Assembly: GCA_039714535.1 (NCBI GenBank)
Contig: JBDLJC010000001.1
Location: forward strand, 73,059 to 137,058
From: Thermodesulfobacteriota bacterium
GTDB lineage: Bacteria; Desulfobacterota; Desulfobulbia; Desulfobulbales; JAGXFP01
DNA: 64,000 nt
Reading direction: 5' to 3'
Shown: one piece after another, positions 3,378-54,171 of the stretch
Position numbering within the stretch: the first letter of the stretch is position 1
How the letters are laid out: each line of letters begins with the position of its first letter
Translations under genes and position numbers: made by a program
Notes under the pieces: generated by a model
Database searches by the model: none
What the model was told of the DNA's origin: nothing
Seen by the model: the letters and a program-made list of their open reading frames with translations, nothing else

Positions 3378-3529
3378 TTAGCGGCGCTCACACTGGTCAA
3401 TCGGCTCCGGCCGTGATCACTACCAGCTTGGGCACTGGCGGCCGGGGCGGGGGGATCATTATTCATGGCATAAGCTCAAGCTGATCTATTCCCCAAGATG
3501 GGGCAAACATATTGAGAAAGGCAGTCAAG

Positions 3530-4939: not shown

Positions 4940-5049
4940 TAGTGAAAGCAGCAAAAAATAGGGACAGATTAGATGATCTGTAATCAGGGATGAGTTCGAC
5001 AGGATGTCCAGCGGTAGCATTTAGCGGAATTTAGCTTATTCCCTCTGCT

Positions 5050-5760: not shown

Positions 5761-5787
5761 CTCTAAAGTTGGGAATTTGGCCGGTCC

Positions 5788-6615: not shown

Positions 6616-7336
6616 CTGGTACTCCTCCGTTTATTTCTTTTTCGAGGCGATTGAAAAAAACTTCCATGAACTGGTGGCGCTCATCGGCCAGCTGCCGGCC
6701 GATGGGGGTTAGCATCCGCTCCCGGACCCGGCAAAGCTTGACCCGAAATTCCCGGTAGGCCGTGTCCTCAACGGTGTAGGGTGCGGTGGTGTGGATATCT
6801 ATCTCGTGATTGTGCAGTTTGGCCCCGATTTGACCGGCAAAGAGAAAGGCGCGGCCAACGCCTACCGCCCCGATTGAATCGAGCTTGTCGGCATCAAAAA
6901 GAATCTTTGCCTCCAGAGAGAGGGGCGGATTGGCGCTGCGGAACCGATGGCTGGCAATGCAATGGCAGATTGCCGCAATGTCCTCTTCCTTAAAACCGTA
7001 CTCAAGCAGGATCGGCCTGGCCAGTTCGGCTCCCCGGACGGCGTGGCAGATTACGCCTTTGCTGGCCGATTCATCCTGCCTGCCGATGTCGTGCAGGATG
7101 GCGGCGCCGCTGATGATATCGAGGCGACCGTTCATGACCTTGCCGATCTGGAAGGCGGTGGCGAAAACCCGGTCGGCATGATCGATGGTATGACAACCGC
7201 CCTCTGCTTCATAGTAACTGGCGGCAGTCTTGCGGAGCCGGGCGGTAAGCTCTGCGCCCAAAGGTGGTTCAATAGCGCCGGTCTGGAGCTGGCAAGAGTC
7301 GGCTGCTGGGTGGTTGTTAACTGAACAGTTCATCAT
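6599..7336 (-). CDS. HD-domain phosphohydrolase
   Basis: Contains H..DH..RV and ILHDIGR motifs. Confidence 0.7.
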   Translation of the reverse strand: MMNCSVNNHPAADSCQLQTGAIEPPLGAELTARLRKTAASYYEAEGGCHTIDHADRVFATAFQIGKVMNGRLDIISGAAILHDIGRQDESASKGVICHAVRGAELARPILLEYGFKEEDIAAICHCIASHRFRSANPPLSLEAKILFDADKLDSIGAVGVGRAFLFAGQIGAKLHNHEIDIHTTAPYTVEDTAYREFRVKLCRVRERMLTPIGRQLADERHQFMEVFFNRLEKEINGGVPDVQGC

Positions 7337-8012
7337 GGAGCAGGTGGATCGCTGATCTCAACAGTTCCTGATCGGCAATATTTTTATTGGCCCCTGATTC
7401 CTGGCGGAAGGTATCGAGATTGTAGAGAAGGTGCAGGAATCTTTCCTGTTGCCGGTCATCCGGCTTGAAGCCTTCTTTTATCCGAGGGTGATGGAGGACG
7501 GTCATCAGCAGGTCGTTGAACTCGTTATAGGCAGCCAGGGCCTGGTCGGTAAGCCAATTATCGATAGTGACTTCCGGGCCGCTGGCAAAACCCTGGCAAT
7601 GGGGTTCGTGTAAAAGGACGAAAAGTTCGGCTGCTTGACCGTCTTTGTCAAGACAAGCGCCCCGGCCGACCGGGTAGGTGCGGCAGGCGCCCGGGCGATC
7701 CTGATAAACCGTGCAGCCCTTGTCGTTAACAAATGGACAGCTGGCCCGACCGTCATCGACCATGGCCAGGAACACCAGGGGGAAGGTGTCCTCGGCGGTT
7801 TTTTCCACCAGGGCATAGCGGTCCAGAAACTCACCACTGGAGAGGTTCAAAGCCTGGCGCAACCTGAGCACGTCGTAGGGAGACAGGGCCAGATCAAGTT
7901 GGCGGCAGCAATCGGTAAAGCAGGCCACTTCCGGGTGACAGCTGAACTGGAAAGTCTCGTTGTCGTCGAGCCTGCGCACATTTTGGGGCAGGCTGATGTT
8001 GTCCATGGTCAT
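7317..8012 (-). CDS. YkgJ-family (UPF0153) cysteine-cluster protein
   Basis: Cys motifs CHPEVACFTDCC, ASCPF and GCTVY..RPGACRTYP. The start is trimmed to the ATG at 8012, just after the secDF stop. Confidence 0.6.
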   Translation of the reverse strand: MTMDNISLPQNVRRLDDNETFQFSCHPEVACFTDCCRQLDLALSPYDVLRLRQALNLSSGEFLDRYALVEKTAEDTFPLVFLAMVDDGRASCPFVNDKGCTVYQDRPGACRTYPVGRGACLDKDGQAAELFVLLHEPHCQGFASGPEVTIDNWLTDQALAAYNEFNDLLMTVLHHPRIKEGFKPDDRQQERFLHLLYNLDTFRQESGANKNIADQELLRSAIHLLHDELFS

Positions 8013-8016
8013 TTCG

Positions 8017-38132: not shown

Positions 38133-39611
38133 ATGTCTGAAAACTATTTCAACTCGCTGCCCTTCGGTCGCCAGCTCCAGGAACTTGGCTCCTGCCGGTT
38201 TATGGAAGCTAATGAATTCACCAATGGTTGCGATTACGCTAAAGGGAAAAAGATTGTCATCGTCGGATGTGGCGCCCAGGGCCTGAATCAGGGTCTTAAT
38301 ATGCGTGATAGCGGCCTCGATGTCTCCTACACCTTACGGGGCGCTGCAATCGCCGAAAAACGCGAGTCATTCAAAAACGCTTCTGAAAACGGTTTCACCG
38401 TCGGTACCTACGAAGAACTCCTGCCAACCGCAGATATCGTTATGAACCTGGCGCCGGACAAACAACACAGCAACGTCGTCGAGACCGTTGTGCCAATGAT
38501 GAAGCAGGGCGCGACCTTCTCTTACGCGCACGGTTTCAATATCGTTGAAGAGGGCGCCCAGATCCGTTCCGACCTGACGGTCATCATGGTTGCCCCCAAA
38601 TGCCCCGGTTCTGAAGTACGGGCCGAGTACGTTCGTGGTTTCGGTGTTCCTACCTTGATTGCCGTTCACGGGGAAAATGATCCCAATGGCGACGGCCTCG
38701 AGATAGCCAAGGCACTTTGTTCCGCCCAAGGTGGTGATCGGGCCGGTGTCCTTGAGTCTTCTTTCGTTGCCGAGGTCAAGTCTGACCTTATGGGCGAACA
38801 AACCATTCTCTGCGGCATGCTGCAAGCTGGCGCCCTGCTCTGCTTCGACAAGATGACCGAAAACGGGATCGATGCCCCCTATGCCGTAAAACTGATCCAA
38901 TACGGCTGGGAGACCATCACCGAAGCACTCAAGCACGGTGGCATAACCAATATGATGGATCGTCTCACCAATCCGGCCAAATTAGTAGCATACGACCTGG
39001 CCGAGGAACTCAAAGATATTATGCGGCCCTTATTCGAAAAACACATGGACGATATCCTCTCAGGGGATTTCTCCAAAACCATGATGGCAGACTGGGCCAA
39101 TGACGACGTTAATTTACTTACCTGGCGTGAAGCAACCGGCCAGACCGTTTTTGAGAAGACCGAAGCCGCCGGTGAGATTTCCGAGCAGGAGTACTTCGAT
39201 AAGGCAATCCTGATGGTTGCCATGGTCAAGGCCGGGGTTGAGCTCGCTTTCGAAACCATGGTCATGTCCGGAATTGAGGCAGAATCAGCCTACTACGAGT
39301 CACTCCACGAAACTCCTCTGATTGCCAATACCATCGCCCGGAAAAAACTCTACGAAATGAACCGGGTTATTTCCGACACAGCCGAGTATGGCTGCTACCT
39401 TTTCGCCCACGCCTGTGTCCCGCTGCTGAAGGATTTCATGGGTTCGGTCAATACCGATGTAATCGGTAAAGGATTGGAAATTAAAGACAATGGCGTTGAC
39501 AACCAGACCCTGGTCCAAGTTAACGCTGAGATCCGCGAGCATCTGATCGAAGAGGTAGGCCAGGAGTTGCGTGCTGCCATGAACGGTATGCAGGCAATAG
39601 CTTCCGCCTGA
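38133..39611 (+). CDS. ilvC: Ketol-acid reductoisomerase, class II (long form)
   Basis: 492 aa with MSENYFNSL...[20 protein letters not shown], the E. coli-type IlvC pattern. Confidence 0.9.
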
Positions 39612-39670: not shown

Positions 39671-39804
39671 AAGTTGCCGGAATCTTCAGAGCACGATTCT
39701 ACCTGCTTTATGCCGGCATTAAATGAAACTTTTCATTCTCGCTCCCACCACAATCTTCCGGATATACAGTGCATGTGTCCCCCTGATTAATACCACAAGG
39801 GTTC

Positions 39805-39930
39805 TGTTAAATCCCCCTCGGAGTCTATCGCTTACCTGCGGGGGGGCACTCTTTTCAGTACCCCCTTGAGGGGCGTATAAGTCTCGATGTCTCGCGAACT
39901 CGCCTATCGGTTTGAGCCGACAAGCAGCTC
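39805..39930. repeat. Copy D (partial) of the dispersed repeat, containing the left 29-bp island-flanking arm
   Basis: Core cctcggagtctatcgcttacctg (39816..39838). The segment ggcactcttttcagtacccccttgagggg (39845..39873) is the exact reverse complement of 48612..48640. Confidence 0.75.
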
Positions 39931-39939
39931 AACTCAGCT

Positions 39940-40875
39940 TTATCGGGTCAGCGTTATCCTCGTGCTGCTGCGGACGATCTTGTTGTTTATCTGGTCTTCG
40001 ACAATGCCGATTATCCTATAATCACCGATAGGGTCTGAGCTGTCCAGAACCAGAGCCAGTTCCTGCTCGGCCATAATAAACGCCGGGTGAGTCGGGGCTT
40101 TGCCATCTGCCCTTGCGTAACGGCGACGGTTCATCATCGGCTTGCCGGATGGGTCCACCAGGGTAAAAGAAGATATTTCATAGGAAAAATTTCCGTCAAT
40201 GTCCGGGGTAAATCCGGTGACCAGAAATGAGATGTAGATCTCCTGGTACGGTTTTATCGTCTTCAGAAGTTCCAGGCTGATCCTAGAGGCCGGTGGCGCT
40301 TCCAACCATTCCCGGGCATGACCAGGCGAATCTGAGGTGACTATCAGCAGCTTCAAGTCGCCTTCGGCTTTTGGTTCCGGATATATTGTTTCCATAGCAG
40401 GGGGAATGACTTCTTCTGGCTCAGTTCCAGATTCTTCCTCCGGCACTATATCGGCAACGACCGCATTAGCGACAGATGGCTCTCGGATAGTAACGAGCAA
40501 TCCGTCAGGCTGTTCGCGTATCGTGTAATCAAACAATTCATCAAGATTAGAATCAAAAACCACTCTGAACCCATCAGTCCTCCGTCCTGTTCTGACTCGG
40601 GCGAGAGCGGTTCCTACCTGTTTGACAGGGGACGGACCCGTAAGCCTCACGTTCTTAATGTCTAAATACATGCGATCAGGACGATTTTCTTCAACATTTT
40701 TCTTAAGCTGGAATTTGCGGTAGTCCTTTATAGCTCCGTCTGCTTTCAGGTGAACTTTAGTTTCGTTAGCTGCGCGCTCAATTTCGATATCGAAAAGTAC
40801 GGTTGCATTAGCCCGGGCAGTGGGGTGTATAGACAGGCCTAACAGCAGAAATAATAATACTCTGGTCAATTTCAT
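39940..40875 (-). CDS. Secreted protein with an AMIN-like N-terminal domain
   Basis: The start is trimmed to ATG 40875 (RBS gggagag). Signal peptide MKLTRVLLFLLLGLSIHPTARA. The AMIN-like stretch is DRMYLDIKNV..FRVVFD. Confidence 0.45.
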   Translation of the reverse strand: MKLTRVLLFLLLGLSIHPTARANATVLFDIEIERAANETKVHLKADGAIKDYRKFQLKKNVEENRPDRMYLDIKNVRLTGPSPVKQVGTALARVRTGRRTDGFRVVFDSNLDELFDYTIREQPDGLLVTIREPSVANAVVADIVPEEESGTEPEEVIPPAMETIYPEPKAEGDLKLLIVTSDSPGHAREWLEAPPASRISLELLKTIKPYQEIYISFLVTGFTPDIDGNFSYEISSFTLVDPSGKPMMNRRRYARADGKAPTHPAFIMAEQELALVLDSSDPIGDYRIIGIVEDQINNKIVRSSTRITLTR

Positions 40876-41069
40876 TCTCTCTCCCATTTTTAGAACCGTT
40901 TCATTCTGATCTCTATCCCGGATATTATAGGGAACATTCCCGAGTCTGTCTCCTATAATATGAATCTGTTGTCCCGGTTTTGTTAAGTGTTGTTTGCATT
41001 CAATAAGCATGACCGAGGTTCCTTTTAAGAACAATAACGCCAGCCATAGTTGTTTTTGACGATTACCGG

Positions 41070-41447
41070 TTAGGTTCGTGAGCCACTATAGCTCATTTCA
41101 ATTAGGGTGTAATAAAATCCTTTCACTGCGGCCACCGAGAAAAATACCATGATAGCCATGGCCTGCATGTCCACTGATTGCGGTACTAGCAACTTTGCGT
41201 CTTTGATAAGCATGATCAAAACGGCCACATTGACCATGGTTCCAATGCCGAAATGTACCAGCATCTTGGGCAAAAGGTAAAATTGATACATTATCCAGGT
41301 GACAAGGTCGGCAAGGACAAGGCAGTTTAGAAAGCTTTGCATAGCCACGGAAAGATGTAGTCCGTCAAAATAAAAAACCCACGCCCACAGGCCATAAAAG
41401 ACAGAGCGCACTAAGATGTTGGCATTATGTGTGAGTATGGAGTCCAT
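41070..41447 (-). CDS. Small integral membrane protein (about 4 TM), unknown function
   Basis: 125 aa, hydrophobic and AT-rich. One unit of the cassette-like array. Confidence 0.5.
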   Translation of the reverse strand: MDSILTHNANILVRSVFYGLWAWVFYFDGLHLSVAMQSFLNCLVLADLVTWIMYQFYLLPKMLVHFGIGTMVNVAVLIMLIKDAKLLVPQSVDMQAMAIMVFFSVAAVKGFYYTLIEMSYSGSRT

Positions 41448-41471
41448 AATTGATCATATGTTTAAAGATTT

Positions 41472-41548
41472 GGGTGAGGGGCGCGCCCAAAACTTGCCCG
41501 ATTAGGCCGCCACGCTTCTTCGCGTCCCTCGCTACCCTTTGCTTAGAT
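41472..41548 (-). repeat. attC-like imperfect palindrome (unit 5)
   Basis: In gene direction GAGGG(A)CGCG pairs with CGCGCCCCTC. It shares an identical 19-bp box acttgcccgattaggccgc (41492..41510) with 42035..42053. The R boxes are non-canonical. Confidence 0.4.
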
Positions 41549-41986
41549 TTATTTAGGGCCAATCGAAACATTTTCACTTTTTGGAAGGTTGTTATTTAAT
41601 AGATCTATTAATTTTAACGAGCTTCCTGAGAATCGGCGACTAGAAATAGATTTGGTCACTCTATCTTTTGTTATCGCGACAGAAATTGTTGCTTTGTGTT
41701 CTGGCCACACAGCATAGTCTTCTGTTGCCATAACCTCTTTAAAAACCTTATGAGCAAGGGTCTTTATTTCAATGATTATTGTTGGGGCCAGATCAATAGC
41801 TTTTTCAGTAATTTCTGTTGGACTGGCATAACGTAGAATTGTAAATTGCCCATCTTGATGGATATTAAACGATGTTGTGCCAGTGAGGCCAACAGTTGGC
41901 TTTAAAGTGATAGAAATAGATTCGCTGGAAGCAAAGCAGGTGGCCGAAAAGAATAGAAACCAAAAAATTGATATTATAATTTTCAT
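41549..41986 (-). CDS. Small secreted protein, unknown function
   Basis: The start is trimmed to ATG 41986 (RBS gaggt). Signal peptide MKIIISIFWFLFFSATCFA. Confidence 0.5.
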   Translation of the reverse strand: MKIIISIFWFLFFSATCFASSESISITLKPTVGLTGTTSFNIHQDGQFTILRYASPTEITEKAIDLAPTIIIEIKTLAHKVFKEVMATEDYAVWPEHKATISVAITKDRVTKSISSRRFSGSSLKLIDLLNNNLPKSENVSIGPK

Positions 41987-42013
41987 GTTGTTACCTCGAA
42001 AATCTAACGATTT

Positions 42014-42088
42014 GCATAACCAGCGGGCCACAGGACTTGCCCGATTAGGCCGCATTCGTTCACACGGTCTGATATGCGCTGGTTCGGA
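42014..42088 (-). repeat. attC-like site (unit 4)
   Basis: Gene direction reads TCCGAAC-CAGCG...GGCCTAATCGGGCAAGT...CGCTG-GTTATGC. The terminal AACCAGCG and CGCTGGTT pair. It lies 28 nt upstream of the next ATG. Confidence 0.5.
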
Positions 42089-42163
42089 GATTTTTGTCGT
42101 TTGGTTTATTGGTTAGTTAACCTGATTTATTTTTGGGAGACAGGAGCTGGCTACGGGCTGGTT

Positions 42164-42538
42164 TCAGGAGTTATTTTCAAGCAGTCTGATTTCCTCTTCT
42201 AATTTGTCGATCTTTGCCTGTATTTCAGGCCGCGGATCCTCTTCGAGAATGAATTCATTCGGCAGCCCTGTTATCTCGCATATTCCAACTTCTGATTCCA
42301 TTTGGGCAATAGTTTCATCTATCTTCTCGAGTGTATCCACATACACCTGCTGTTCTGCCTTTTTGTTGCTTAACAATTCTTTAATGTCTTGCTCGCTTTT
42401 AAATGACAGCTCTATGGTTCTCTGGAAAGACTTCCATTGGTCGAAGAACTGCCCAGCATATACTTGGGATTCTGGTTGTGTCGGCCATAGAGAAAAAACC
42501 GACAGTACAGTAAAAAGTATGATAAAAAAATATTTCAT
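42164..42538 (-). CDS. Small secreted coiled-coil protein, unknown function
   Basis: Signal peptide MKYFFIILFTVLSVFS and E/K/Q-rich heptad-like sequence. Confidence 0.5.
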   Translation of the reverse strand: MKYFFIILFTVLSVFSLWPTQPESQVYAGQFFDQWKSFQRTIELSFKSEQDIKELLSNKKAEQQVYVDTLEKIDETIAQMESEVGICEITGLPNEFILEEDPRPEIQAKIDKLEEEIRLLENNS

Positions 42539-42603
42539 AGCTACACACCCCTTTGAGGTTAATAATACAGTATAAACTGTCTACCTAAGTCGAGATTTTT
42601 ATA

Positions 42604-42629
42604 CGGCCTGGCTAATGCGCTGGTTATGC
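42604..42629 (-). repeat. Orphan half of an attC-like site
   Basis: GCATAACCAGCGCATTAGCCAGGCCG starts 3 nt after the stop at 42632. It resembles the 5' half of the 42014..42088 site. I found no matching 3' half. Confidence 0.35.
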
Positions 42630-42631
42630 AT

Positions 42632-43255
42632 TTATTTCGTAGTTTTGGGGATCATGTTGGTGAAATTATTGTCAGATAATATCTTTTTGATCACTTCGTT
42701 TATAGAGGTCAAGATTACTTTTGTCATAATTGTGTCACTAGGGCCAGTGTAGGTTCGCTTAATGTTTTTTGAGTAATAAGGCCCTATTTTTATCGACTTC
42801 CCATTTGTGTTTTTAATTTCTATTTCAATCTGAACTTCGCCGTAAACATCCCAGTATAATGCGGTAACATCTGTGCCAATCCAAAAATCTAATATTTTAC
42901 CTGTTATGGTAAGATTCTCGTCGATGTTATTAGTGCTATACCCATTATTTGTTAATTCGCGACGGAACTCATTATGGATTATTTCTGCAATAGGCCGCTC
43001 AACGGACACATCATTTACTGGCAAACCTAAACCAGCCTGTTTGCCTCCAATCAGTTCGGGTGCTTTATTCTTGGTACGAATATCTTGAAACATTTCGAGT
43101 GTGATATTGGATGTGATTTGGTTAGTGCTTGTCGTACTTGGTGCTAGACTATCTTCGAATTTCAATGTAGATGGCCCTAAAGAAAGGCAACCTGAGGTAG
43201 AAAGAAGCAGGGCTATTATTAAACAGTAAAAATATTTGGTGTTAAAAAATTTCAT
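42632..43255 (-). CDS. Lipoprotein (YajG-like?), unknown function
   Basis: Lipobox LLSTSGC. 207 aa. The family guess is weak. Confidence 0.55.
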   Translation of the reverse strand: MKFFNTKYFYCLIIALLLSTSGCLSLGPSTLKFEDSLAPSTTSTNQITSNITLEMFQDIRTKNKAPELIGGKQAGLGLPVNDVSVERPIAEIIHNEFRRELTNNGYSTNNIDENLTITGKILDFWIGTDVTALYWDVYGEVQIEIEIKNTNGKSIKIGPYYSKNIKRTYTGPSDTIMTKVILTSINEVIKKILSDNNFTNMIPKTTK

Positions 43256-43279
43256 TTTTTCTCCATTTATTAGTGATTT

Positions 43280-43717
43280 TTAATCATGTTTATTGAATAT
43301 GCTGTTGATAACCTCATTAACCATTTCTGCTGGTGTTTTTCTGGTAAGGGAAGTGTGGTATGAATTGCCAGATGCTAAAGGAAAATTGTTTTTTGGGTCT
43401 CTTATTTTTATCGTAAGTTCTATCATATACATGGTTAAATCCCAAATCCATTTGTCTTTATACGTGACTATAGCATCAACCCCTTCTGGTGTTTCAACTC
43501 CAGAAGTTACTTGATATCCAATTTCCTTAAGCTTATTGGCTATTAATATATTTATTTCTCTGCCATCTGGTGCAAATTTAGTTACATGAATTGATTTGAT
43601 GCTGGCAAGATTGGCATTTGGGGCAATGTTAGCTGTTGCACGATTAAAAGCACAACCTGAGGCTAGTATAGTGATGATAAGTAACAGGCTTATATTTAGG
43701 AGTAACTTATATTTCAT
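43280..43717 (-). CDS. Lipoprotein, unknown function
   Basis: Lipobox ILASGC. 145 aa. Sits 24 bp upstream of the next lipoprotein gene, so both appear to belong to the same unit. Confidence 0.55.
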   Translation of the reverse strand: MKYKLLLNISLLLIITILASGCAFNRATANIAPNANLASIKSIHVTKFAPDGREINILIANKLKEIGYQVTSGVETPEGVDAIVTYKDKWIWDLTMYMIELTIKIRDPKNNFPLASGNSYHTSLTRKTPAEMVNEVINSIFNKHD

Positions 43718-43732
43718 TTTTTCCCTATTGAG

Positions 43733-43855
43733 GCATAACGTTAAAACTCAGCGGAGCAAATGGGCAGTGCGGACTTGGTAAATTGCACGTATACACAGCA
43801 GTTTACAACTTGATCAAACCTGCCTCTTTTGTTCCGCTGGACTGCCTTGTTATGT
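43733..43855 (-). repeat. attC-like site (unit 2)
   Basis: Gene direction reads ACATAAC-(9 nt)-CAGCGGA ... TCCGCTG-(9 nt)-GTTATGC. The R-like boxes CATAAC and GTTATG are complementary, followed by an unpaired 9-nt spacer and a 7-bp inner stem. Confidence 0.5.
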
Positions 43856-43881
43856 GTTCTCTAGGCTTTACCAAGGTCTGG

Positions 43882-45528
43882 CTACAAGTACCATTCTGTC
43901 TTTATTTCACCAATATCTGCTTCCTTCCATTCTTTTTTCCAAAGCTCCCAAAACGGAATATCATTTGACGAAGGTGGCAAAACACATTTATCTATTTTTA
44001 CTAATGATGGTAGGACGATAGATTCTCCAACCAATAATGCTTCTCCGGCTTGCAATGAAGGGAGTTTATCCGTTAAGTTTCCAAGTGTGTCAGGCAATAA
44101 TCTTTTCACATAATTTTGATCAATTGGGTTTGTTAAACGCATTGCAATAAAACTATTACATTGCGAAAATATTGTTTCGGATATCTCAGAAGGTCTTTGG
44201 CTAGACAATAAGAGAGTTACTCCATACTTACGCCCTTCTTTTGCTATTCGCTCAATTGAATTTTTAGACGCCCGATATTTAACTAAATCACTTCTAGGGA
44301 CATATTTGTGAGCTTCCTCATAAACAAGTAAAAATGGAGTATCATTGTTTATTTTTTCTTCTGGATCTTTTTTTGCTCTCAATCTTTTATAGAAATATCC
44401 GTACTCAAATATAATCCTTGATATCAAAGAAACGGTAATACTAAGAACATCGAATGGGACTCCACTTAAATCCAATATAGTTACATTACTTTTTGCACCA
44501 TCTTTATTTCCGATTAATTGCTTAATTGTATCCTCAAATGAGATGTTTTTACTTTCTTCTCCAAGCAAGAAGTCTAATCTTTTGTCATTTAGCTTATTTT
44601 CTAATCGACTGACGAAGTTGGTTAATTTCCCAAACAATGTCCCTTGCTTTGTTGTGCCAGCCTTAGCTCCATCAATCATCTCTGTATTCTTGCTGTTTGC
44701 AAAATTTAATACTTCTTTAATGTCAAACATTAATGGGGAGTCATAATGGATTTTTGCTTTATCAGTTTCACTGCCGGTAAATTTGGCAATTCTATCTGCA
44801 ACTACTGCTTCTTTAAAAACATTACGTTGATTATGGTCATTTGCTTCTGTGTCAATGAAGAGTTCTTCTAGTTCTTCACTTGTTAGAAGCCAGTATGGCA
44901 ATCGTAAATCTGCTATTCCAAGGTTGATAGATTCAGGAAATGCTGATTTGTATTCTGAATGAATATCAAAGATAATGACATGAGAGTTATTTAATGCAAA
45001 AGTCCCGTCTTTGCCCTCTACAGCTTGTTGAATTATTTTTGTCACAGTATGTGATTTTCCTGATCCCGTTGATCCAATGACCGCGATATGTTTATTGAAA
45101 AAATTGTTTCCATTTACGGGTACTCGAATGTTAGAGTTTGACGATAAAGATGAGAATGTAAATTTTTCTTCGTTAACTATTGATTCTGCGTAAATGGCCA
45201 AAATTTCTTCTTCTTTTGCGGGTTCAACTTTTTTCGGTGGGATTGCAATTGTGTCTCCGCCTCGTTGAAATTTATTATCTTTGACAACTCCAAGAGGATT
45301 GGCCTCAATGATGTACCTACGCTTTGCGACACCTTCTTCTGCTACTTCTATCAGAAAATTATCAATTATTGCGATAAGAGCGATATCGTCATCGTCAGAA
45401 ATACGTATGTAAGATCCGATCTTTAAGGTCTCAGCTGCTGATTGAATAAATTCGTCATCAACAGCTATTTTGACTTTATTGGGATACACAGAGATTACTT
45501 CCGCATTCACCTTGTCTTCGTCTGCCAT
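43882..45528 (-). CDS. herA: HerA-family ATPase (DUF87/HerA-FtsK fold), partner of DUF4297
   Basis: 548 aa. N-terminal HAS-barrel-like region and Walker A VIGSTGSGKSH. The start overlaps the stop of the upstream gene (TGATG). Confidence 0.85.
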   Translation of the reverse strand: MADEDKVNAEVISVYPNKVKIAVDDEFIQSAAETLKIGSYIRISDDDDIALIAIIDNFLIEVAEEGVAKRRYIIEANPLGVVKDNKFQRGGDTIAIPPKKVEPAKEEEILAIYAESIVNEEKFTFSSLSSNSNIRVPVNGNNFFNKHIAVIGSTGSGKSHTVTKIIQQAVEGKDGTFALNNSHVIIFDIHSEYKSAFPESINLGIADLRLPYWLLTSEELEELFIDTEANDHNQRNVFKEAVVADRIAKFTGSETDKAKIHYDSPLMFDIKEVLNFANSKNTEMIDGAKAGTTKQGTLFGKLTNFVSRLENKLNDKRLDFLLGEESKNISFEDTIKQLIGNKDGAKSNVTILDLSGVPFDVLSITVSLISRIIFEYGYFYKRLRAKKDPEEKINNDTPFLLVYEEAHKYVPRSDLVKYRASKNSIERIAKEGRKYGVTLLLSSQRPSEISETIFSQCNSFIAMRLTNPIDQNYVKRLLPDTLGNLTDKLPSLQAGEALLVGESIVLPSLVKIDKCVLPPSSNDIPFWELWKKEWKEADIGEIKTEWYL

Positions 45529-46736
45529 CAGATGATCTCCTTTATATTTCCTAAATCATTAATCTGGATAACAACACTTTTCACATCCACGTTGGGTATT
45601 GAAAGATAGGGTTTATCAAAATAGAATTGATAAACTTCTTTTGTCTTAGTGACATGGGTCAATGTATCAGTTATGTGAGTTTCTTTTGTTAATATTTTTG
45701 CTTTAATATTGTTACTGCTGTCTGCTTTTGTGGCAATTGATTTTGCTGAAAAGTCTGCCCCAGAAAAGGGGAAACCGTCTCTAAACTCAAAGCCTTCATC
45801 GTACAATTGTTTTTTCAATTCTAACAATCTACCGTCAGATATATTATTAAAATGAATATATGGACAATACGTTTGAGGTTCCCTCTTTTTTAGGTTTGAG
45901 TACCGTTTTGAAATTATAAATACTAAATCTTTTAATTCGCCGATGGCATAGTTTGCTGGCAAGTCGATTAAAAAGAAACGCTCAAAAGGTCGCTTGTTAA
46001 GTCTTCTGAAATATCTGTCCTTTAACTCTTTATGGTATTTTGCTTTTCCTTTTAGTTCAAAAAACCATTTATTGAAAAGGACAGTTTTGCGATTAATTCT
46101 TTTTAAAAAATCCTGCTTTGAAATTTTTCTGTCGTTAATATTGTTTTCAATTGCAATTTTCCGTATTTCATTCAAAGCATTATTATAGAAATAGTATTCA
46201 GCATCAAAAAGATCGCAGGAAAATGTGCCTTTTAAAAGGCTTATGATATCATCGAATTGTTCAAGATATTCTTTTGCATTAATATCGATTGATAATGTAT
46301 CTAAAAAGTTCTGTAACTCTCTATCATTAAGTCCCAAATCCTCATGATGTTTTTTTTGCGTCCCATCTACTTTGTAGCTTAAAAATTTATCTTTCAAGAA
46401 ATTTACATCTATTGGCAAAGTAAGCTTGTTATGCCCGGACTTGTAATGCCCATATAGGTGATATTTAATTTGAGGTTTATGTTCTGATTTAGCTTTCCCA
46501 AAATGAGAAAGCATAAATCTGATTGGTTTAGAAATTACAGAGTGATTATATTCCGTTTTTGAATAATACTTACACTGTATTGCGATTGTTTCCAAAGATG
46601 TTGCAATGTCAATATCTTCAACACCTTCAACTACAATCTCGTCTGTATCATTAGAGAGACTCAATAATTGTAGGATTGAGTAATCGAACTGATAGAAATA
46701 TCCTTTAATTGTGTCTGTTGCACTTCTATTGCTCAT
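45528..46736 (-). CDS. DUF4297 (Cap4-like PD-(D/E)xK nuclease) domain protein
   Basis: The N-terminus TIKGYFYQFDYSILQLL...VEGVEDIDI...IQCKY matches the DUF4297 pattern (GxxYQ, E.xED, QxK). 402 aa. Confidence 0.75.
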   Translation of the reverse strand: MSNRSATDTIKGYFYQFDYSILQLLSLSNDTDEIVVEGVEDIDIATSLETIAIQCKYYSKTEYNHSVISKPIRFMLSHFGKAKSEHKPQIKYHLYGHYKSGHNKLTLPIDVNFLKDKFLSYKVDGTQKKHHEDLGLNDRELQNFLDTLSIDINAKEYLEQFDDIISLLKGTFSCDLFDAEYYFYNNALNEIRKIAIENNINDRKISKQDFLKRINRKTVLFNKWFFELKGKAKYHKELKDRYFRRLNKRPFERFFLIDLPANYAIGELKDLVFIISKRYSNLKKREPQTYCPYIHFNNISDGRLLELKKQLYDEGFEFRDGFPFSGADFSAKSIATKADSSNNIKAKILTKETHITDTLTHVTKTKEVYQFYFDKPYLSIPNVDVKSVVIQINDLGNIKEII

Positions 46737-46774
46737 GGAGTCATCTTTGATATTAGAAATTTAGTCTCTGCCAC

Positions 46775-46865
46775 ACATAACGCTATGCATCACCAGTGGC
46801 GCCCATTGACTTGCCGCGTCAGCGCCGCAGACGTTCCCGCCATCTGGTGAATGAAATTGTTAAAT
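46775..46865 (-). repeat. attC-like site (unit 1)
   Basis: Gene direction reads ATTTAAC-(9 nt)-CACCAG[A]TGGCG ...35 nt... CGCCACTGGTG-(9 nt)-GTTATGT. The first box fits RYYYAAC. The inner stem has one bulged base. It starts 3 nt after the stop at 46868. Confidence 0.5.
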
Positions 46866-46867
46866 GA

Positions 46868-47998
46868 TTATTTATCTTTTAGAACTTTTAAATCAGAAAC
46901 AGCCTCGAGCAACCAAACAGAGCCTTTCCGCTCTAAAAAACCTTGAACTTCCAACAACTCTCTAGATTTATGGGCCTCAATAGCCTGAAGATATTGACTT
47001 ATCCCTAGCTCAATTCTCACATCGATATTTCCATATTCCTCATGATAGTGTTTAAGAATAATAGTTCTTTTGCCATCCTCACTTGTTGGATCATTGCTAT
47101 GCAGGTTTACAACCTTTCCAATAATTAGTGTCTTTTCCGGCGATACTTCTTTCAGCTTTTCTGCTGCATATTTCAAATATGAAATTTCCTCATCACCAAA
47201 CGTTTTTGATTTGAAATCTGACACATCTTCAGTTGGAGGTAAATTGGTGGCCCATTGAACAGACAATTCTACTGGTATTTCAAGAGCCTCTCCCATTTCA
47301 ACGATGGCTTCACACATTCTTGAGTTGAACCCAGAACTAAAATTGGCGACCAAAATTTCTGGGTCTTTCTTGGATACAGCTTCAGTTGTGTTCTTTATGC
47401 CTCGCACAATCCTCTCAATAACTTTCCTTTCAATAGGAGGCGAAAATAAGCCTTGTTGTTTGAATTCTTCAATTACTGGTGTTTCAATAGAGAAGCCAAA
47501 ACTGCCCTGGAAGGTGTGGCCAAACCTTATTTTCTCGGCCATCTGATAGCCAACAGTCGAAGGGTAATTATGATGAGGTAGTGCATTCTTTTCAGAACAT
47601 GCGCTATATACAAAAAGATTGCGAATACCGTTCACTTCTTTTTTGGCAAGTTCTAGAGGGATGCTAGACAGGGACTTGTCGTTAGGTGAGATCTTTATAA
47701 AAAAATTATCCCTATTAAAACATTTCAAAAGACCAGCTAATATTGACGGTTCTATTTCGTAAAGATTAGATATTAATAAAAAAACGTCGTACATTCTTTT
47801 GTCAAAATCTTCAAAGTTGTCAGAGCGTGGAAGAAACAATTCAAGAGGAACACCCGCATCATTTTTAGGACCGTGAAAAACTGATAATTTCCTATTCCGA
47901 TGAACTATTTCTTTCCAATCTTTTGATTTTAAAAATGACTTTAAATCAAACAGTGAAATTCCTCTGATAAGCTCAAAAGGGGATTTTATTTCTGTCAT
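46868..47998 (-). CDS. 376-aa protein with no domain I recognise, translationally coupled to the DUF4365-like gene
   Basis: Long AT-rich ORF. ATGA overlap with the upstream gene. No TM segment, signal peptide or nucleotide-binding motif is recognisable. Confidence 0.6.
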   Translation of the reverse strand: MTEIKSPFELIRGISLFDLKSFLKSKDWKEIVHRNRKLSVFHGPKNDAGVPLELFLPRSDNFEDFDKRMYDVFLLISNLYEIEPSILAGLLKCFNRDNFFIKISPNDKSLSSIPLELAKKEVNGIRNLFVYSACSEKNALPHHNYPSTVGYQMAEKIRFGHTFQGSFGFSIETPVIEEFKQQGLFSPPIERKVIERIVRGIKNTTEAVSKKDPEILVANFSSGFNSRMCEAIVEMGEALEIPVELSVQWATNLPPTEDVSDFKSKTFGDEEISYLKYAAEKLKEVSPEKTLIIGKVVNLHSNDPTSEDGKRTIILKHYHEEYGNIDVRIELGISQYLQAIEAHKSRELLEVQGFLERKGSVWLLEAVSDLKVLKDK

Positions 47999-48507
47999 GA
48001 CAAATCCCCACTGCTAACTTTTGTGATTAAATTCTTTATTGTGCTTGGCGTTAGAAGTTGTTCCCGAGGTATTTTGACCCTGACAGTAGATGTATTTTTT
48101 GTGGGTTCGCCACTTACTGAGAAATAATAGCAACATTTTTTTATCGTCAACGATTCTTCAGATACACAAATCCATTCTTTAATATCTTTTGGAAGGCACA
48201 TAACCACAAGAAAGCAGGGAATAGTAGAATTGTTTCTACGATACAAAAGCTTGTTGTATACGTCTGCATCTAGGTCATAAATTACATGGTTTTCATCCAC
48301 ACCCAAATTTATTGTCGCTTTAAGTTGGCAGTCAAATATGCCACCCATATCCATTCGTTTTCCATCAATGGAATCGACTCGCCGAACTGTAAGGTCAACA
48401 CCATAGTCATGATTGACTATGTCATATGTTGCCCCAGCTCTCGAGACAATGGCGCTAACCAAAGACACGCTCATGGATTCTTCGATAGATTGGATGGGAG
48501 TGGTCAT
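47995..48507 (-). CDS. DUF4365-like PD-(D/E)xK (restriction-endonuclease-fold) protein
   Basis: 170 aa. The layout SIEES...HDYGVDLTV...FDCQLKAT fits the E / D.G(I/V)D / Q.K motif arrangement of DUF4365. Confidence 0.6.
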   Translation of the reverse strand: MTTPIQSIEESMSVSLVSAIVSRAGATYDIVNHDYGVDLTVRRVDSIDGKRMDMGGIFDCQLKATINLGVDENHVIYDLDADVYNKLLYRRNNSTIPCFLVVMCLPKDIKEWICVSEESLTIKKCCYYFSVSGEPTKNTSTVRVKIPREQLLTPSTIKNLITKVSSGDLS

Positions 48508-48611
48508 TATTAGTATTTATTTGTTGTTGGTTATATTTTGCATTTCACCATCGATTGGCAGGCACCTTTGCCTTGCTATCTAAATGTTGAAGCAGTTTTC
48601 AGGCATTTTCA

Positions 48612-48640
48612 CCCCTCAAGGGGGTACTGAAAAGAGTGCC
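48612..48640. repeat. Right 29-bp arm, exact inverted copy of 39845..39873
   Basis: The sequence is cccctcaagggggtactgaaaagagtgcc. Confidence 0.85.
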
Positions 48641-48814
48641 TTGTTTGTAATATCTCGATATTTTATCGACGACCTTAATAGCCGGTAGCCAATATGATAT
48701 ACCTATCATTTTATTTCGGTTGATACCAGAAAAAAGGGGACGGGCTTTAAGATCTCAAACCGAGAAGGATTTTTGTGTTGGCATCTGAGATAAGAAAGGA
48801 AGGTTGGGAGAAAT

Positions 48815-48869: not shown

Positions 48870-49064
48870 TCAAAACCAGCCGCTTTGCCGGCACCACTCT
48901 TCCTTGATCTCCTCAATCTGGTTCCGGTAGGGTTCCACCGGACTTTCCTGGCCGCATCCCGTGCAGACTACTGTGGCATTGTGTCAGCGGCCCCGGAGGA
49001 AGGCGGTCCCGCCGCAGAACAGGCAGGTGAGTTGCAGGTCGTTATCGGGCTCTGTTGTATTCAA
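48870..49064 (-). other. Small zinc-ribbon-like ORF with an in-frame TGA (48984..48986)
   Basis: Hand translation gives (L)NTTEPDNDLQLTCLFCGGTAFLRGR-TGA-HNATVVCTGCGQESPVEPYRNQIEEIKEEWCRQSGWF*. Two CxxC knuckles flank the TGA. The only candidate start is a weak TTG with a poor RBS. Confidence 0.3.
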
Positions 49065-49086: not shown

Positions 49087-49125
49087 AAAAAAAAGGGTTT
49101 CCGATTAATAACCGGAAACCCTTTT
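49087..49125 (-). terminator. Rho-independent terminator after tRNA-His
   Basis: The minus strand reads GGGTTTCCGG-loop-CGGAAACCC followed by T8. Confidence 0.75.
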
Positions 49126-49133
49126 GAATTTCG

Positions 49134-49211
49134 TGGGGTGAGTGATGGGATTTGAACCCACGGCCTCCTGGGCCACAACCAGGTGCTCTAACCAACTGAG
49201 CTACACCCACC
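49134..49211 (-). tRNA. tRNA-His (GTG anticodon)
   Basis: The reverse complement folds as a cloverleaf with G-1 and acceptor GTGGGTG/CACTCAC. The anticodon arm is CCTGG-TTGTGGC-CCAGG, the T-arm is GTGGG-TTCAAAT-CCCAT, and CCA is encoded. Confidence 0.9.
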
Positions 49212-49957: not shown

Positions 49958-50408
49958 TTTGAATCTACCTCCGGTAATGCGTTGAGAATCTCGTAACGGA
50001 TCGGTGGTTATAACCACCTTGAACCGGCAACAGGCCAACAACGATCGTTTGGATTTTAGTCGAGATCATTTTATATGCTTAAGAGGCTGAGAAAATAATG
50101 CATAATGTTATTGTGGTCAATGGGAGTTGAGAATTAATCGTAAATATAAGAAAACGGTTTTTCAGTTGATTGGTTTTGCGCCAACCTCGGCCCGACTCAA
50201 ACCTGAAAACAAGTTTGAAACAATTTTAGCTGTTTTTTTTGCCATTATGATATACCTTTACCTCCTTTGTGGACTCGATTCCATAAAAGTGGCAACGGGT
50301 TGGTTCTCTTTTTGTTGCCGGTAATGATTGTCGTCAAGAATTTATGCACGGGCCCCTATAAATCTTACAGGCCTGTTGTCTGTTAACTAACCAATACTAT
50401 TGAAGATT

Positions 50409-51473
50409 ATGGAAGAGATAAAGAAGTCCAGATACGCAGAAGCCGGTGTTGATATCGACAAGGGCAATGATTTTATCGATAATATTAAGCCCCTGGTCTC
50501 CGCTACCTTTAATCGCGGCGTCCTTACCGATATCGGTGGTTTTGGCGGCCTGTTCGCCCTGGGCAGTGATCGCTATGAAGATCCGGTGCTGGTCTCTTCC
50601 ACCGATGGGGTGGGGACCAAGCTGACCGTGGCCCAGCTTTGCGGTAAACACGATACAATCGGGATCGATCTGGTGGCCATGTGTGTTAATGATGTGGTTG
50701 TCTCCGGGGCCAAGCCGTTGTTTTTTCTGGATTATTTTTCCATTGGCAAATTGGATAACGAACTGGCTGTCGATGTTGTCAAGGGAATCGCTGAAGGCTG
50801 TAAGATCTCCAACTGTTCTTTGATTGGCGGTGAGACCGCCGAGATGCCGGGGATTTATAAAGAAGGTGATTACGATCTGGCCGGTTTTGTCGTAGGAATC
50901 GCCGAGAGGGACGATATTATTGATGGCACCGATATCCGGGTTGGCAACAAGATCATTGGTTTGGCCTCCAGCGGGGTGCATAGCAATGGTTACTCCCTGG
51001 CCCGCAAGATCTTCTTTGAGGAGCACGGCTTCGGGGTTGATACCCATCTGGATGAATTAGGCTGCACGGTTGGCGAAGAGTTGCTCAAACCCACTCGTAT
51101 CTACGTTGAGCCGCTGTTGAACATCATCAAAAATTTCAAAGTTCATGGTTTGGTTCATGTTACCGGTGGCGGTTTCTTCGATAATATCCCCCGGGTATTG
51201 CCCCAGGGGTGCAAGGTCAAGATTGAAGACGGCAGTTGGGCGGTTCCGCCGGTTTTCAGTTATATGTGTAAGCAGGGCAATGTTTCACCGGAAGAGATGT
51301 TCCGGACCTTCAACTGCGGGATTGGCATGGTTGCCTTTGTTGATGGTGATCAGGCCGATGATATCTGTTTTCAGTTGGCGGCCATGGGTGAGACCTCTTT
51401 CGTGATTGGTGAGGTTGTGGCCAAGGGCGATGATGAGCCGGTGATCGAGATTGACTGCGAGGCAAACTTCTAA
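50409..51473 (+). CDS. purM: Phosphoribosylformylglycinamidine cyclo-ligase (AIR synthetase)
   Basis: Contains YAEAGVDIDKGN, DGVGTK and GGETAEMPG. Confidence 0.9.
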   Translation: MEEIKKSRYAEAGVDIDKGNDFIDNIKPLVSATFNRGVLTDIGGFGGLFALGSDRYEDPVLVSSTDGVGTKLTVAQLCGKHDTIGIDLVAMCVNDVVVSGAKPLFFLDYFSIGKLDNELAVDVVKGIAEGCKISNCSLIGGETAEMPGIYKEGDYDLAGFVVGIAERDDIIDGTDIRVGNKIIGLASSGVHSNGYSLARKIFFEEHGFGVDTHLDELGCTVGEELLKPTRIYVEPLLNIIKNFKVHGLVHVTGGGFFDNIPRVLPQGCKVKIEDGSWAVPPVFSYMCKQGNVSPEEMFRTFNCGIGMVAFVDGDQADDICFQLAAMGETSFVIGEVVAKGDDEPVIEIDCEANF

Positions 51474-52101: not shown

Positions 52102-54171
52102 TTATTCCTTTGCGGCTTTGGCCTGTTCGATGATTTTTTCTGCCAGGTTCATCGGGACTTCTTCATAATGGGAAAATTCGGACTTGAATGAACCGCGGCC
52201 GGCGGTAATCGAATTCAAATCCGGGGCATACCTGAGGATCTCCGCCATGGGGGTCTGGGCGTTGATAACTTCAAGCTTGTTCTCGGAATCCATACCCATT
52301 ACCCGACCGCGTCTGCCATTAAGATCGCCGATTACATCGCCGACATATTCTTTAGGGATCATGATGGTCATATCCATGATCGGTTCGAGGAGGACCGGGT
52401 TCGCCTCCTGGGCCCCTTTTCTAAAGGCAAGTGCGCCGGAGAGTTTGAAGGCCATTTCCGACGAGTCAACGGCATGGAAAGAGCCGTCGACCAAAGATAC
52501 TTTGATGTCTACCACCGGGTATCCGGCGATTATTCCCTTCTCCATTGCCTCTAAAACGCCCTTTTCAACCGCAGGGATGTACGTTTTGGGGATGACGCCG
52601 CCAACGATCTTGTCCTCAAAGGCAAAGCCCCCGCCCTTGGCCAGCGGGGCGAGCTCGATCCAGCTATCGGCATATTGACCGTGGCCGCCGGTCTGTTTCT
52701 TGTGTTTGCCCTGGACCCTGGCCTTGCCCTTGATGGTTTCCTTGTAGGGGATTTTTGGCGCTTCAAGTTTCATCTCAACCCCGAATTTACGCTTAATCCG
52801 CTCGCCAATTACTTCCAGGTGGATTTGGCCAACGCCGGAGATCAGGGTTTGTCTGGTTTGCTGGTCCCTGGTAAGTTTGAGGGTGGGGTCTTCTTCAAGC
52901 ATCTTGCTGAGAGAGGCGTGGAGCTTTTCCTCGTCTTTTTTATCGTCGGTGGTAATGGCGTACGAGATGCTTGGTGCGATCGGGACCAGTTCATCGAACA
53001 CAACCGGGTCATCAGCACTGCAGATAGAGTCGCCGGTGACGGTTGCTTTGAGTTTAGCTATGGCAATAACCATGCCCGGCCCGGCGCTGTCAACTTTGCT
53101 CTGATTTTTCCCTTCCATCAGCAGAAGATGGCTGAACTTTTCGACGGTATCTTTGCTTGAATTATAGAACGAGTCACCGCTTAGGGTGCCGGATACCACT
53201 TTAAGGATGGTAAGACGACCGGCATATGGGTCGGCTATGGTCTTGAAGACTTGGGCGGAAAAAGGGGCATCCAGGGTCGGCTGGCGTTCGATAATATCGC
53301 CGGTCTTGGGGGCGGTGCCAATCTGGGCCGGGCAGTCGCACGGTGCTGCCATAAAATCATTGATTAAGTCAAGCAGGAGGACTGTGCCTGAATTGGCGGT
53401 GGCTGCGGCTAAGGTAACCAGGCTGATATCGCCGCTTTTGACGGCTTTTTTCAGGCCACTGTGCAGATCTTCATCGGTTAGTTCACCTTCTTCAAGGAAT
53501 TTTTCGATCAGCTCGTCGTCGGTTTCAGCGACCTGCTCCATGAGATTGTCCCGATATAGGGCAAGATCGTCAGCCATGTCCTCCGGGATTTCACTCTCTT
53601 TAACCGTACCGTTATCGCCGGCAAACATGTACGCTTTCTGGGTGAGGACATCGATTATTCCCTTGAAGTTGTCTTCTGAGCCAATGGGTAAATGGATAAC
53701 GGCCGGTTTAAAGGGCAGTTCGTTTTTGATCCCAGCCAGGGTCGTCTCAAAATTGGCCCTTTCCCGATCCATTTTGTTGATGACGATAAACGAGGGCAGG
53801 TGCTGGTTACAGACAAAATCGGCAATCTTTTCGGTCTGGCTCTTGAGGGCTTGGTTGGCTTCTATGACGAAGAGGGCATTGTTGGCTATTTTGGCCGCGA
53901 AGGCGGCATCGTTTAAAAAGTTATCGTCACCGGGGGTGTCGATCAGATAAATCGAGTTCTTTTGCCAACTGTAATGGTTGAAGGATGCGTTGATTGTTGC
54001 CTTGTGCCTGATTTCCTCGGCATCGAAATCCATCACCGAAGAACCATCGTCCACCTTGCCGAGCCGCTTGGTTTTGCCGGCGGTAAAGAGTAGAGCTTCT
54101 GTCAAGGATGTTTTGCCGCTTTTACCGTGACCGAAAATTGCTACATTCCGAACCAGATTAATATCCTGCAT
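52102..54171 (-). CDS. Elongation factor G family GTPase (EF-G paralog)
   Basis: G1 motif GHGKSGKT, DTPG and NKMD. 689 aa with EF-G domains II-V. Confidence 0.85.
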   Translation of the reverse strand: MQDINLVRNVAIFGHGKSGKTSLTEALLFTAGKTKRLGKVDDGSSVMDFDAEEIRHKATINASFNHYSWQKNSIYLIDTPGDDNFLNDAAFAAKIANNALFVIEANQALKSQTEKIADFVCNQHLPSFIVINKMDRERANFETTLAGIKNELPFKPAVIHLPIGSEDNFKGIIDVLTQKAYMFAGDNGTVKESEIPEDMADDLALYRDNLMEQVAETDDELIEKFLEEGELTDEDLHSGLKKAVKSGDISLVTLAAATANSGTVLLLDLINDFMAAPCDCPAQIGTAPKTGDIIERQPTLDAPFSAQVFKTIADPYAGRLTILKVVSGTLSGDSFYNSSKDTVEKFSHLLLMEGKNQSKVDSAGPGMVIAIAKLKATVTGDSICSADDPVVFDELVPIAPSISYAITTDDKKDEEKLHASLSKMLEEDPTLKLTRDQQTRQTLISGVGQIHLEVIGERIKRKFGVEMKLEAPKIPYKETIKGKARVQGKHKKQTGGHGQYADSWIELAPLAKGGGFAFEDKIVGGVIPKTYIPAVEKGVLEAMEKGIIAGYPVVDIKVSLVDGSFHAVDSSEMAFKLSGALAFRKGAQEANPVLLEPIMDMTIMIPKEYVGDVIGDLNGRRGRVMGMDSENKLEVINAQTPMAEILRYAPDLNSITAGRGSFKSEFSHYEEVPMNLAEKIIEQAKAAKE

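Follow-up and report, generated by a model that had tools for sequence, protein, structure and literature searches.

A probable integron cassette array without an integrase carries the predicted DUF4297-HerA and PDC-M02 defence systems in a Thermodesulfobacteriota genome

The subject of this work is a 64-kb stretch of DNA, called the window in the following, which is part of a metagenome-assembled genome (MAG) of a Thermodesulfobacteriota bacterium and the one stretch of this genome that was examined. Its DUF4297 and AMIN-domain proteins are identical to the NCBI entries MEN8134003.1 and MEN8133996.1. Between about 41.03 and 48.6 kb the window contains a low-GC island (34-42% GC across 41.0-48.8 kb as compared to about 50% in both flanks), and our work suggests that this island is very probably a chromosomal integron cassette array without an integrase, i. 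e. a cluster of attC sites lacking integron integrases (CALIN), with PDC-M02 and DUF4297-HerA as cassettes. In the original prediction, all genes between 41.07 and 48.5 kb had been placed on the minus strand, and the list of open reading frames (ORFs) agrees with this: the minus strand carries every ORF of at least 120 aa within 41070-48507.

The array consists of six co-oriented units (Table 1): PDC-M02, DUF4297-HerA, a pair of lipoprotein genes, and the genes for proteins of 124, 145 and 125 aa. PDC-M02 is a candidate defence system of the PADLOC database; its two genes overlap by 4 nt, and the 376-aa PDC-M02B protein has no match in Pfam and no sequence match in PDB. This DUF4365 pair had been proposed to form a multi-gene cassette. 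It is indeed followed by its own attC site (S1), but its 5' boundary is not recognisable. The same proposal for the second unit holds in full: the unit extends from 46780 to 43739 (3,042 nt), contains two genes for a total of about 950 aa, and is bounded by attC sites. Since the DUF4297 and herA genes are adjacent, overlap by one base and both give full-length matches, the pair is assigned as a predicted member of the DUF4297-HerA system. Cassettes 3, 4 and 5 are much shorter (1,176, 555 and 542 nt). The 145-aa lipoprotein of cassette 3 has no family match in Pfam or PADLOC, and no recognisable attC is present 3' of the unit for the 125-aa membrane protein. Homologues of DUF4297 and PDC-M02B on plasmids do not exceed 46% identity and provided no useful information.

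Table 1. Genes, recombination sites and flanking features of the array, in the direction of transcription. R1 and R2 are covariance models (see text).
Feature	Coordinates	Strand	Evidence or remark
tRNA-His(GTG)	49134..49210	-	Upstream neighbour of the island, outside the array; terminator 49091-49125
Inverted repeat, right arm	48601..48640		93 nt upstream of the DUF4365 start, at the GC drop
Cassette 1 gene A, DUF4365 protein, 170 aa, PDC-M02A	47995..48507	-	Pfam PF14280 E 9e-21; PADLOC E 5e-58
Cassette 1 gene B, 376-aa protein, PDC-M02B	46868..47998	-	PADLOC E 2.5e-111
attC S1, 91 nt, intact	46775..46865	-	R1 24.5 bits, E 2.8e-4, full-length model match; strict pattern match
Cassette 2 gene A, DUF4297 nuclease component	45528..46736	-	PADLOC E 4e-164; PDB 8xav E 1e-93
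Cassette 2 gene B, HerA ATPase, 548 aa	43882..45528	-	Pfam DUF87 E 4.5e-33; PADLOC HerA E 2.5e-275
attC S2, 123 nt, intact	43733..43855	-	R1 30.1 bits, E 8.9e-6
Cassette 3 gene A, predicted lipoprotein, 145 aa	43280..43717	-	LASGC lipobox
Cassette 3 gene B, Lipoprotein_16 lipoprotein, 207 aa	42632..43255	-	Pfam PF03923 E 3e-9
attC S5, decayed	42557..42629	-	Left half intact, GCATAAC-CAGCG-CAT[T]AGCCAG; right end A|TTAACC
Cassette 4, secreted protein, 124 aa	42164..42538	-	ORF, signal-peptide-like N-terminus
attC S3, weak	42002..42122	-	R1 11.6 bits, E 0.86; GGTTAAC ... GTTAGAT
Cassette 5, secreted protein, 145 aa	41549..41986	-	ORF, translation
attC S4, decayed	41460..41548	-	R2 (lineage model) 15.1 bits, E 1, exactly the same limits
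Last unit, membrane protein, 125 aa	41070..41447	-	ORF, translation
Inverted repeat, left arm	39845..39884		About 30-nt insertion in the AMIN 3' untranslated region relative to contig L102

The core of attC sites has the consensus RYYYAAC / GTTRRRY, and extrahelical bases in L'' give the sites their strand selectivity. S1 and S2 have this anatomy: S1 reads ATTTAAC-AATTT-CAT[T]CACCAG[A]TGGCG...CGCCACTGGTGATG-CATAGC-GTTATGT, and S2 reads ACATAAC-AAGGC-AGT[C]CAGCGGAAC...GCTCCGCTGAGT-TTTAAC-GTTATGC. The AAC...GTT triplets are kept in the R''/R' boxes of S1 (ATTTAAC/GTTATGT), S2 (ACATAAC/GTTATGC) and S3 (GGTTAAC/GTTAGAT). The spacers of 5-6 nt (AATTT / CATAGC in S1, AAGGC / TTTAAC in S2) fit the columns of our covariance model bar one inserted base, and the extrahelical base in L'' is present both in S1 (CAT[T]CACCAG[A]TGGCG facing CGCCACTGGTGATG) and in S2 (AGT[C]CAGCGGA facing TCCGCTGAGT). 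In S2 the extrahelical base is C and reads G on the bottom strand (the plus strand of the window), as in model attCs. Folded as DNA, S1 forms a 12-bp L stem with a bulge, which matches the inner stem CACCAG[A]TGGCG with one bulged base described earlier, and the bottom strand of S2 folds as R stem, internal loop and long L stem. In contrast, the 9-nt unpaired spacer that had been ascribed to the sites is not found: the model alignments show a 5-nt spacer, the first three L base pairs and one extrahelical base. Since this stretch resolves into canonical parts, the sites are more canonical than had been described.

To search for attC sites, we used a home-made surrogate covariance model (R1) of 16 class 1 attCs from plasmid records, namely those of aadA1, aadA2, aadA5, aacA4, catB3, arr-3, dfrA17, dfrA27, blaVIM-2, blaIMP-4, blaIMP-19, blaOXA-4, blaOXA-732, blaCARB-2, qacG2 and a DUF3788 cassette. 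The imposed structure comprised 7 R pairs, a 5-nt spacer, 3 L pairs, one extrahelical base and 6 L pairs, with the variable region treated as inserts and a second spacer of 5-6 nt, and the training alignment was in register at both ends. The window was searched on both strands without filters. As had been expected if the island is an array, an attC covariance model gave significant matches: S2 and S1 were the two top matches at exactly the coordinates that had been proposed for them, S3 came third, and all others had E-values of at least 3.6. Among 1.28 Mb of unrelated genomic loci, the top score was 13.1 bits, and class 1 attCs that had been held out of the training scored 54.6 (dfrA7), 47.1 (cmlA1), 23.1 (an unassigned site in locus L105) and 16.6 bits (the site after dfrA1). 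Since held-out attCs cover the range of 16.6-54.6 bits and the controls do not exceed 13.1 bits, S1 and S2 score as functional attCs do and far exceed the background; this does not apply to S3. A strict structural pattern matched twice in the window, again only at S1 and S2; at the same stringency, it matched 15 of about 20 class 1 sites and gave about 15 matches in 2.57 Mb of control strands. A first crude palindrome scan had missed S2 and given a chance match inside the EF-G gene (53598-53712). Finally, we aligned six sites: S1, S2, S3, the site after the HerA homologue of contig L091 and two sites of contig L102 (see below), with S3 and L102 8633-8716 as marginal members and the other four significant. 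In this alignment 92.6% of the L-stem cells are paired, and this value drops to 27-42% once the partners are slid by 1-3 columns; compensatory changes are present at six of the nine L-stem pairs. As the alignment was fitted to the model, these counts lean toward the model structure. The outer R positions pair less well, and this is to be expected because the R' boxes are chimeric.

The other sites, S3, S4 and S5, are poor palindromes according to their folds. S3 is related to S1 (z 12.6) and to the site L102 8633-8716. A palindrome had been described at 42014..42088 (TCCGAAC-CAGCG...CGCTG-GTTATGC); this sequence is present, but the limits 42002-42122 are better supported, because they are favoured both by R1 (E 0.86) and by the rule for cassette boundaries discussed below. 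S3 thus defined contains the earlier palindrome as well as the GGCCTAATCGGGCAAGT box. This box had been suggested to be shared between sites, and it occurs exactly twice in the window (41492-41508 and 42035-42051). A scan of JGI metagenome contigs with the 19-mer GCGGCCTAATCGGGCAAGT gave one match only, which had no integron context: it is located in an intergenic region between proS-like and aminotransferase-like genes of an unrelated high-GC organism (L083, 3244-3262) and is probably due to chance. Thus, the 19-mer appears not to be a widespread repeat. S4 was found in the gap after the 145-aa ORF (146 aa in the original prediction, which had placed a palindrome there). It reads ATCTAAG-CAAAG-GGT[AGC]GAGGGACGCG...CGCGCCCCTCACC-CAAATC-TTTAAAC and keeps the architecture of an attC, with both triplets mutated (AAC to AAG and GTT to TTT). 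Similarly, the orphan half-site reported at 42604..42629 (GCATAAC CAGCG...) is present and could be extended to a decayed full site, S5, in which the L' pairing of the right half is lost and the right end carries ATT instead of the GTT triplet.

The junctions between the units provide a second type of evidence. In integron arrays, each cassette begins with the last six bases of the preceding R', and these bases pair with the cassette's own R''; an IntI-type tyrosine recombinase recombines the folded single-stranded attC between the G and the TT of R'. The 5' edges of four cassettes follow this rule: TTATGT of cassette 2 faces its own R'' ACATAAC, TTATGC of cassette 3 faces GCATAAC, TTAACC of cassette 4 (42562-42557) faces GGTTAAC, and TTAGAT of cassette 5 faces ATCTAAG. 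The variable bases are complementary in 16 of 16 positions across the four cassettes as opposed to 10 of 20 inside the sites. Even the decayed S5 takes part on both sides: its R'' exactly complements the R' of S2, and its terminal TTAACC exactly complements the R'' of the next unit. As judged from the sequence, this complementarity across the cassettes is the trace that IntI leaves when it cuts at G|TT.

Related loci add further observations. Homologues of DUF4297 with 64-68% identity are spread over many lineages. On contig L091, a DUF4297-HerA pair with 64% and 84% aa identity to the proteins of the window is followed by an attC (2900-3002) that scores 32 bits with R1 and shares homology with S2 in its R''-spacer-L'' segment, ACATAAC AAACT CAT[C]CAG.... 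Contig L092, obtained from a different sample, carries the 3' part of this attC (L092 1-60) upstream of the same cassette. The two contigs are identical through ...GAAAGCCCCTGATGAGGGCGTT and then split into GTTGGGC... in L091 and GTTATGT plus the cassette start in L092. As they diverge immediately 3' of GTT, the switch sits at the canonical crossover. The presence of the attC end upstream of its own cassette in L092 is compatible with a tandem copy, with a neighbouring unit that has the same attC, or with an excised circle. In L084, a low-GC genome, the DUF4297-HerA pair and its neighbours follow the boundary rule at three successive junctions. Homologue contigs of about 3.0 kb were considered as proof of cassette-bounded assembly and dropped because the layout of L090 differs.

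An array with different contents is present in the related contig L102, whose AMIN gene is 85-88% identical to that of the window at the DNA level. Directly upstream of the same AMIN module, L102 carries another low-GC array (3600-9500) with ParD/ParE, DUF3465, NfeD plus Band_7, TM_HPP, a GTPase, a 90-aa ORF and a cold-shock protein gene, and these genes are trailed by palindromes. A remnant of an insertion sequence (DDE transposase fragments, 2779-3608) is located at its 5' edge. The site at L102 9026-9149 is 78% identical to S2 over the whole length, variable region included, and scores 28 bits with R1; the site that follows ParE has 77% identity to S4; and the one behind the GTPase gene is similar to S3, even in the box mentioned above. 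This homology of attCs that accompany unrelated cassettes indicates lineage-specific attC families, as in sedentary chromosomal integrons. Homology between the window and L102 resumes at 40981, the 3' edge of the array. Thus, the cassette content differs at the same AMIN locus, and the related locus of L102 does not show the single indivisible block that would have spoken against an array. An empty site was found neither among the AMIN homologues, whose contexts differ in every genome examined, nor in a scan of genome contigs anchored at ilvC, in which LysR-ilvC was conserved, nothing to the right was conserved and no tRNA-His was present.

The absence of a tyrosine recombinase from the window, as stated in the original prediction, was borne out by a tblastn search with IntI1 (best E 4.5); the search detected a tyrosine recombinase in a control locus (E 1.5e-16) and none in L084, L091, L092 and L101-L103. 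A complete integron is not present in the window either: there is no intI, and neither a Pc promoter nor an attI, which is unrecognisable without knowledge of the cognate integron, was identified in the region upstream of the array, which consists of tRNA-His, its terminator and a zinc-ribbon ORF. The arrangement is that of a CALIN, i. e. at least two attCs on one strand less than 4 kb apart (2.9 kb between S1 and S2, with S3 1.6 kb further) and no intI closer than 4 kb; here, intI is absent from all 64 kb. The attC model, the anatomy of the sites, the covariation in the L stem, the boundary rule, the L091/L092 junctions and the array of L102 all support this assignment, which we regard as very probable. 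The additional idea of a decayed remnant applies to the promoter-distal half (S3-S5) but not to S1 and S2, which are structurally intact.

Several observations weigh against this reading. Only two of the five sites, S1 and S2, are significant with R1, which is a surrogate with rough E-values and not the genuine IntegronFinder model. The R' of these two sites is GTTATGY, with a T at position 5 that departs from GTTRRRY. The score of S3 lies under the control maximum (13.1 bits), and S5 was detected neither by R1 nor by R2. Moreover, the boxes of S4 and the right end of S5 were placed partly via the sequence predicted by the boundary rule; this is somewhat circular, and they count as weaker evidence because they were located with the rule itself. 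The predicted 5' edge of cassette 1, TTAAAT, was not found, the nearest sequence being C|TTAAAG at 48745-48751. The sites that flank the L084 pair were not detected by R1 and are attC-like only. Finally, the DUF4297-HerA homologues in L085 and L086-89 have ordinary contexts without attC-like sites, which suggests that the integron is one of several vehicles for DUF4297-HerA.

If the island is a cassette array, it would have been assembled by an IntI-type tyrosine recombinase acting on folded attCs at the G|TT of R'. With IntI provided in trans, the DUF4297-HerA cassette could still excise as a circle, and the distal units are presumably fixed in place because the distal sites have lost pairing or the conserved triplets. 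As there is no Pc and no attI, the cassettes may be expressed from internal promoters or by read-through, the latter since no terminator is present at S1.

It is possible, if doubtful, that the array is part of a still-active sedentary chromosomal integron with its integrase elsewhere in the genome acting in trans. CALINs whose genomes have an IntI gene at another locus have been discussed (Cury et al. 2016, PMC4889954). The scores of S1 and S2 resemble those of functional attCs, and a relative carries attCs of the same family next to other cassettes, a pattern also seen in lineage-specific chromosomal integrons. However, degradation has affected three of the five sites (in S4 both triplets are mutated), and there is no evidence for any intI in the 64 kb of the genome that were covered.

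A second alternative concerns an inverted repeat, GGCACTCTTTTCAGTACCCCCTTGAGGGG, of 29 nt (perfect) or 40 nt (88%), which has two copies only in the window, and these bracket the array and the AMIN gene exactly. The block from 39845 to 48640 might move or invert as one unit, with the cassettes as an older layer inside. For comparison, integrons can be mobilised by flanking miniature inverted-repeat transposable elements. The left arm is an insertion of about 30 nt relative to L102, and the right arm coincides with the drop in GC content and with the end of the Logan contig L001 at 48636. We nevertheless regard this possibility as unlikely: no transposase or invertase gene is located between or beside the arms, no target-site duplication was seen, L102 has AMIN and an array without these repeats, and a short repeat with a hairpin that is present only twice might be a REP-like (repetitive extragenic palindrome) coincidence. 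The contigs of the Logan assembly (SRR27843389) are 100% and 99.95% identical to the window; their breaks, at 42567/42596 and 48636, suggest that strains in this sample differ near S5 and the right arm of the inverted repeat. The breaks at 42567/42596 were dropped as cassette evidence because they are not at GTT and may be single-nucleotide polymorphisms between strains.

An ordinary defence island next to tRNA-His with palindromes that are terminators or REP-type repeats unrelated to integrons is very improbable and already largely refuted, even though the island directly follows a tRNA gene, contains two defence systems, includes poor palindromes (S3, S4 and S5), and closely related DUF4297-HerA pairs are known from plain defence islands that lack sites of this kind: no T-run follows any of S1-S5 and none was called terminator-like, the sites are confined to the array rather than dispersed through the window, as the original prediction requires, S1 and S2 score far higher than the background with a model of unrelated class 1 attCs, the complementarity at the boundaries and the switch at the GTT junction are left unexplained, and the window contains neither the integrase gene nor the tRNA 3'-end repeat expected of a tRNA-targeting island, since no repeat of at least 13 nt of tRNA-His was found elsewhere in the 64 kb.

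The cassette array is embedded between housekeeping genes: EF-G, a MoCF protein, an AIRS-family protein and a zinc-ribbon protein on one side, and the AMIN-domain protein, ketol-acid reductoisomerase (KARI, encoded by ilvC) and a LysR regulator on the other. The island starts just 3' of tRNA-His(GTG) and its terminator. Between this tRNA and the island lies a small, GC-rich zinc-ribbon ORF (CLFCGG...CTGCG; 48870-49048, minus strand) with a single in-frame TGA, which could reflect a pseudogene, a sequencing error or a selenocysteine codon; an AIRS-family gene, possibly SelD-like, is located nearby at 50400-51473. On the other side, the AMIN module (39730-40981) includes a conserved promoter-like leader with TATAAT boxes. 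Its DNA is 79-88% identical to contigs L101, L102 and L103, and the flanking genes differ in all three. The listed AMIN start, a TTG at 41034, is probably too far upstream, as the NCBI protein has 311 aa. The closest relatives of ilvC (38133-39611; 90-94% aa identity) are labelled Desulfuromonadales (Malonomonas, Geopsychrobacter), whereas those of AMIN (39940-40875) are labelled Desulfobulbales/Desulfurivibrionaceae. This conflict could result from unreliable MAG labels, horizontal transfer or a chimeric contig.

The presence of defence systems in integron cassettes is already established; here, the host is modestly new, the cargo is new, and the mechanism is not. With the array reading, an uncultured Thermodesulfobacteriota lineage joins Vibrio and clinical plasmids as a place where integrons stockpile anti-phage functions, and a well-characterised and comparatively large system, DUF4297-HerA, would ride on attC, with direct junction evidence from metagenomes. 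The work also yields a defined cassette of 3,042 nt with two intact attCs for excision testing and a lineage-specific attC family that can be used to fish cassettes out of sediment metagenomes. It is tempting to speculate, with rather low confidence, that DUF4297-HerA circulates between distant phyla as an attC-bearing cassette and is stockpiled in integrase-less, AMIN-anchored arrays of Desulfobulbales-like bacteria, with the inverted repeats as a second route that does not depend on IntI. If so, this system of 3 kb, two genes and about 950 aa would break the supposed size limit on integron-borne immunity, and the bracketing repeats of 29-40 nt would point to moving or inverting of the whole array by means other than IntI.

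How does the array compare with known systems? As in the class 1 attCs of aadA1, aacA4 and blaOXA-732, S1 and S2 have a 7-nt R'' ending in AAC, a 5-nt spacer, three base pairs plus an extrahelical base, the L stem, a spacer of 5-6 nt and GTT, and the L'' boxes of S2 (AGT[C]CAGCGGA) and of the blaOXA-732 attC (AAT[C]CAGCGGA) are nearly the same. They differ in R' (GTTATGY as opposed to GTTAGRY in class 1) and in their unrelated variable regions, and, unlike class 1 integrons, the window has no attI1, no Pc and no 3'-conserved segment. With CALINs, the window shares co-oriented attCs less than 4 kb apart, each after an ORF, degraded distal sites and the lack of intI (Cury et al. 2016, PMC4889954). 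For CALINs, an origin by disruption has been proposed (PMC4889954), and the insertion-sequence remnant at the 5' edge of the L102 array fits this proposal. Unlike the type, the array of the window was called by a surrogate model with two significant sites, and a short inverted repeat brackets the array together with a core-like gene.

Anti-phage cassettes have been described in integrons (Kieffer et al., 10.1101/2024.07.02.601719), among them a DUF4365-domain defence protein (Divona) of the V. cholerae integron (Darracq et al. 2024, 10.1101/2024.07.02.601686). Like the sedentary integrons with such cassettes, the window has promoter-distal defence genes among small cassettes for secreted proteins and ORFans and attC families shared within a lineage; unlike in the Vibrio integrons, the host is a Thermodesulfobacteriota MAG and no integrase is present in the window. 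The integron defence systems have been stressed as being among the smallest (Darracq et al. 2024, 10.1101/2024.07.02.601686), whereas the DUF4297-HerA cassette has 3.0 kb and encodes 950 aa. No paper linking DUF4297 with integrons was found in the literature searched. The two proteins themselves correspond to the known DUF4297-HerA system (PADLOC; PDB 8xav), with full-length matches and a one-base overlap of the genes as in an operon, and have nothing distinctive; what is new is the vehicle, a putative attC-bounded cassette.

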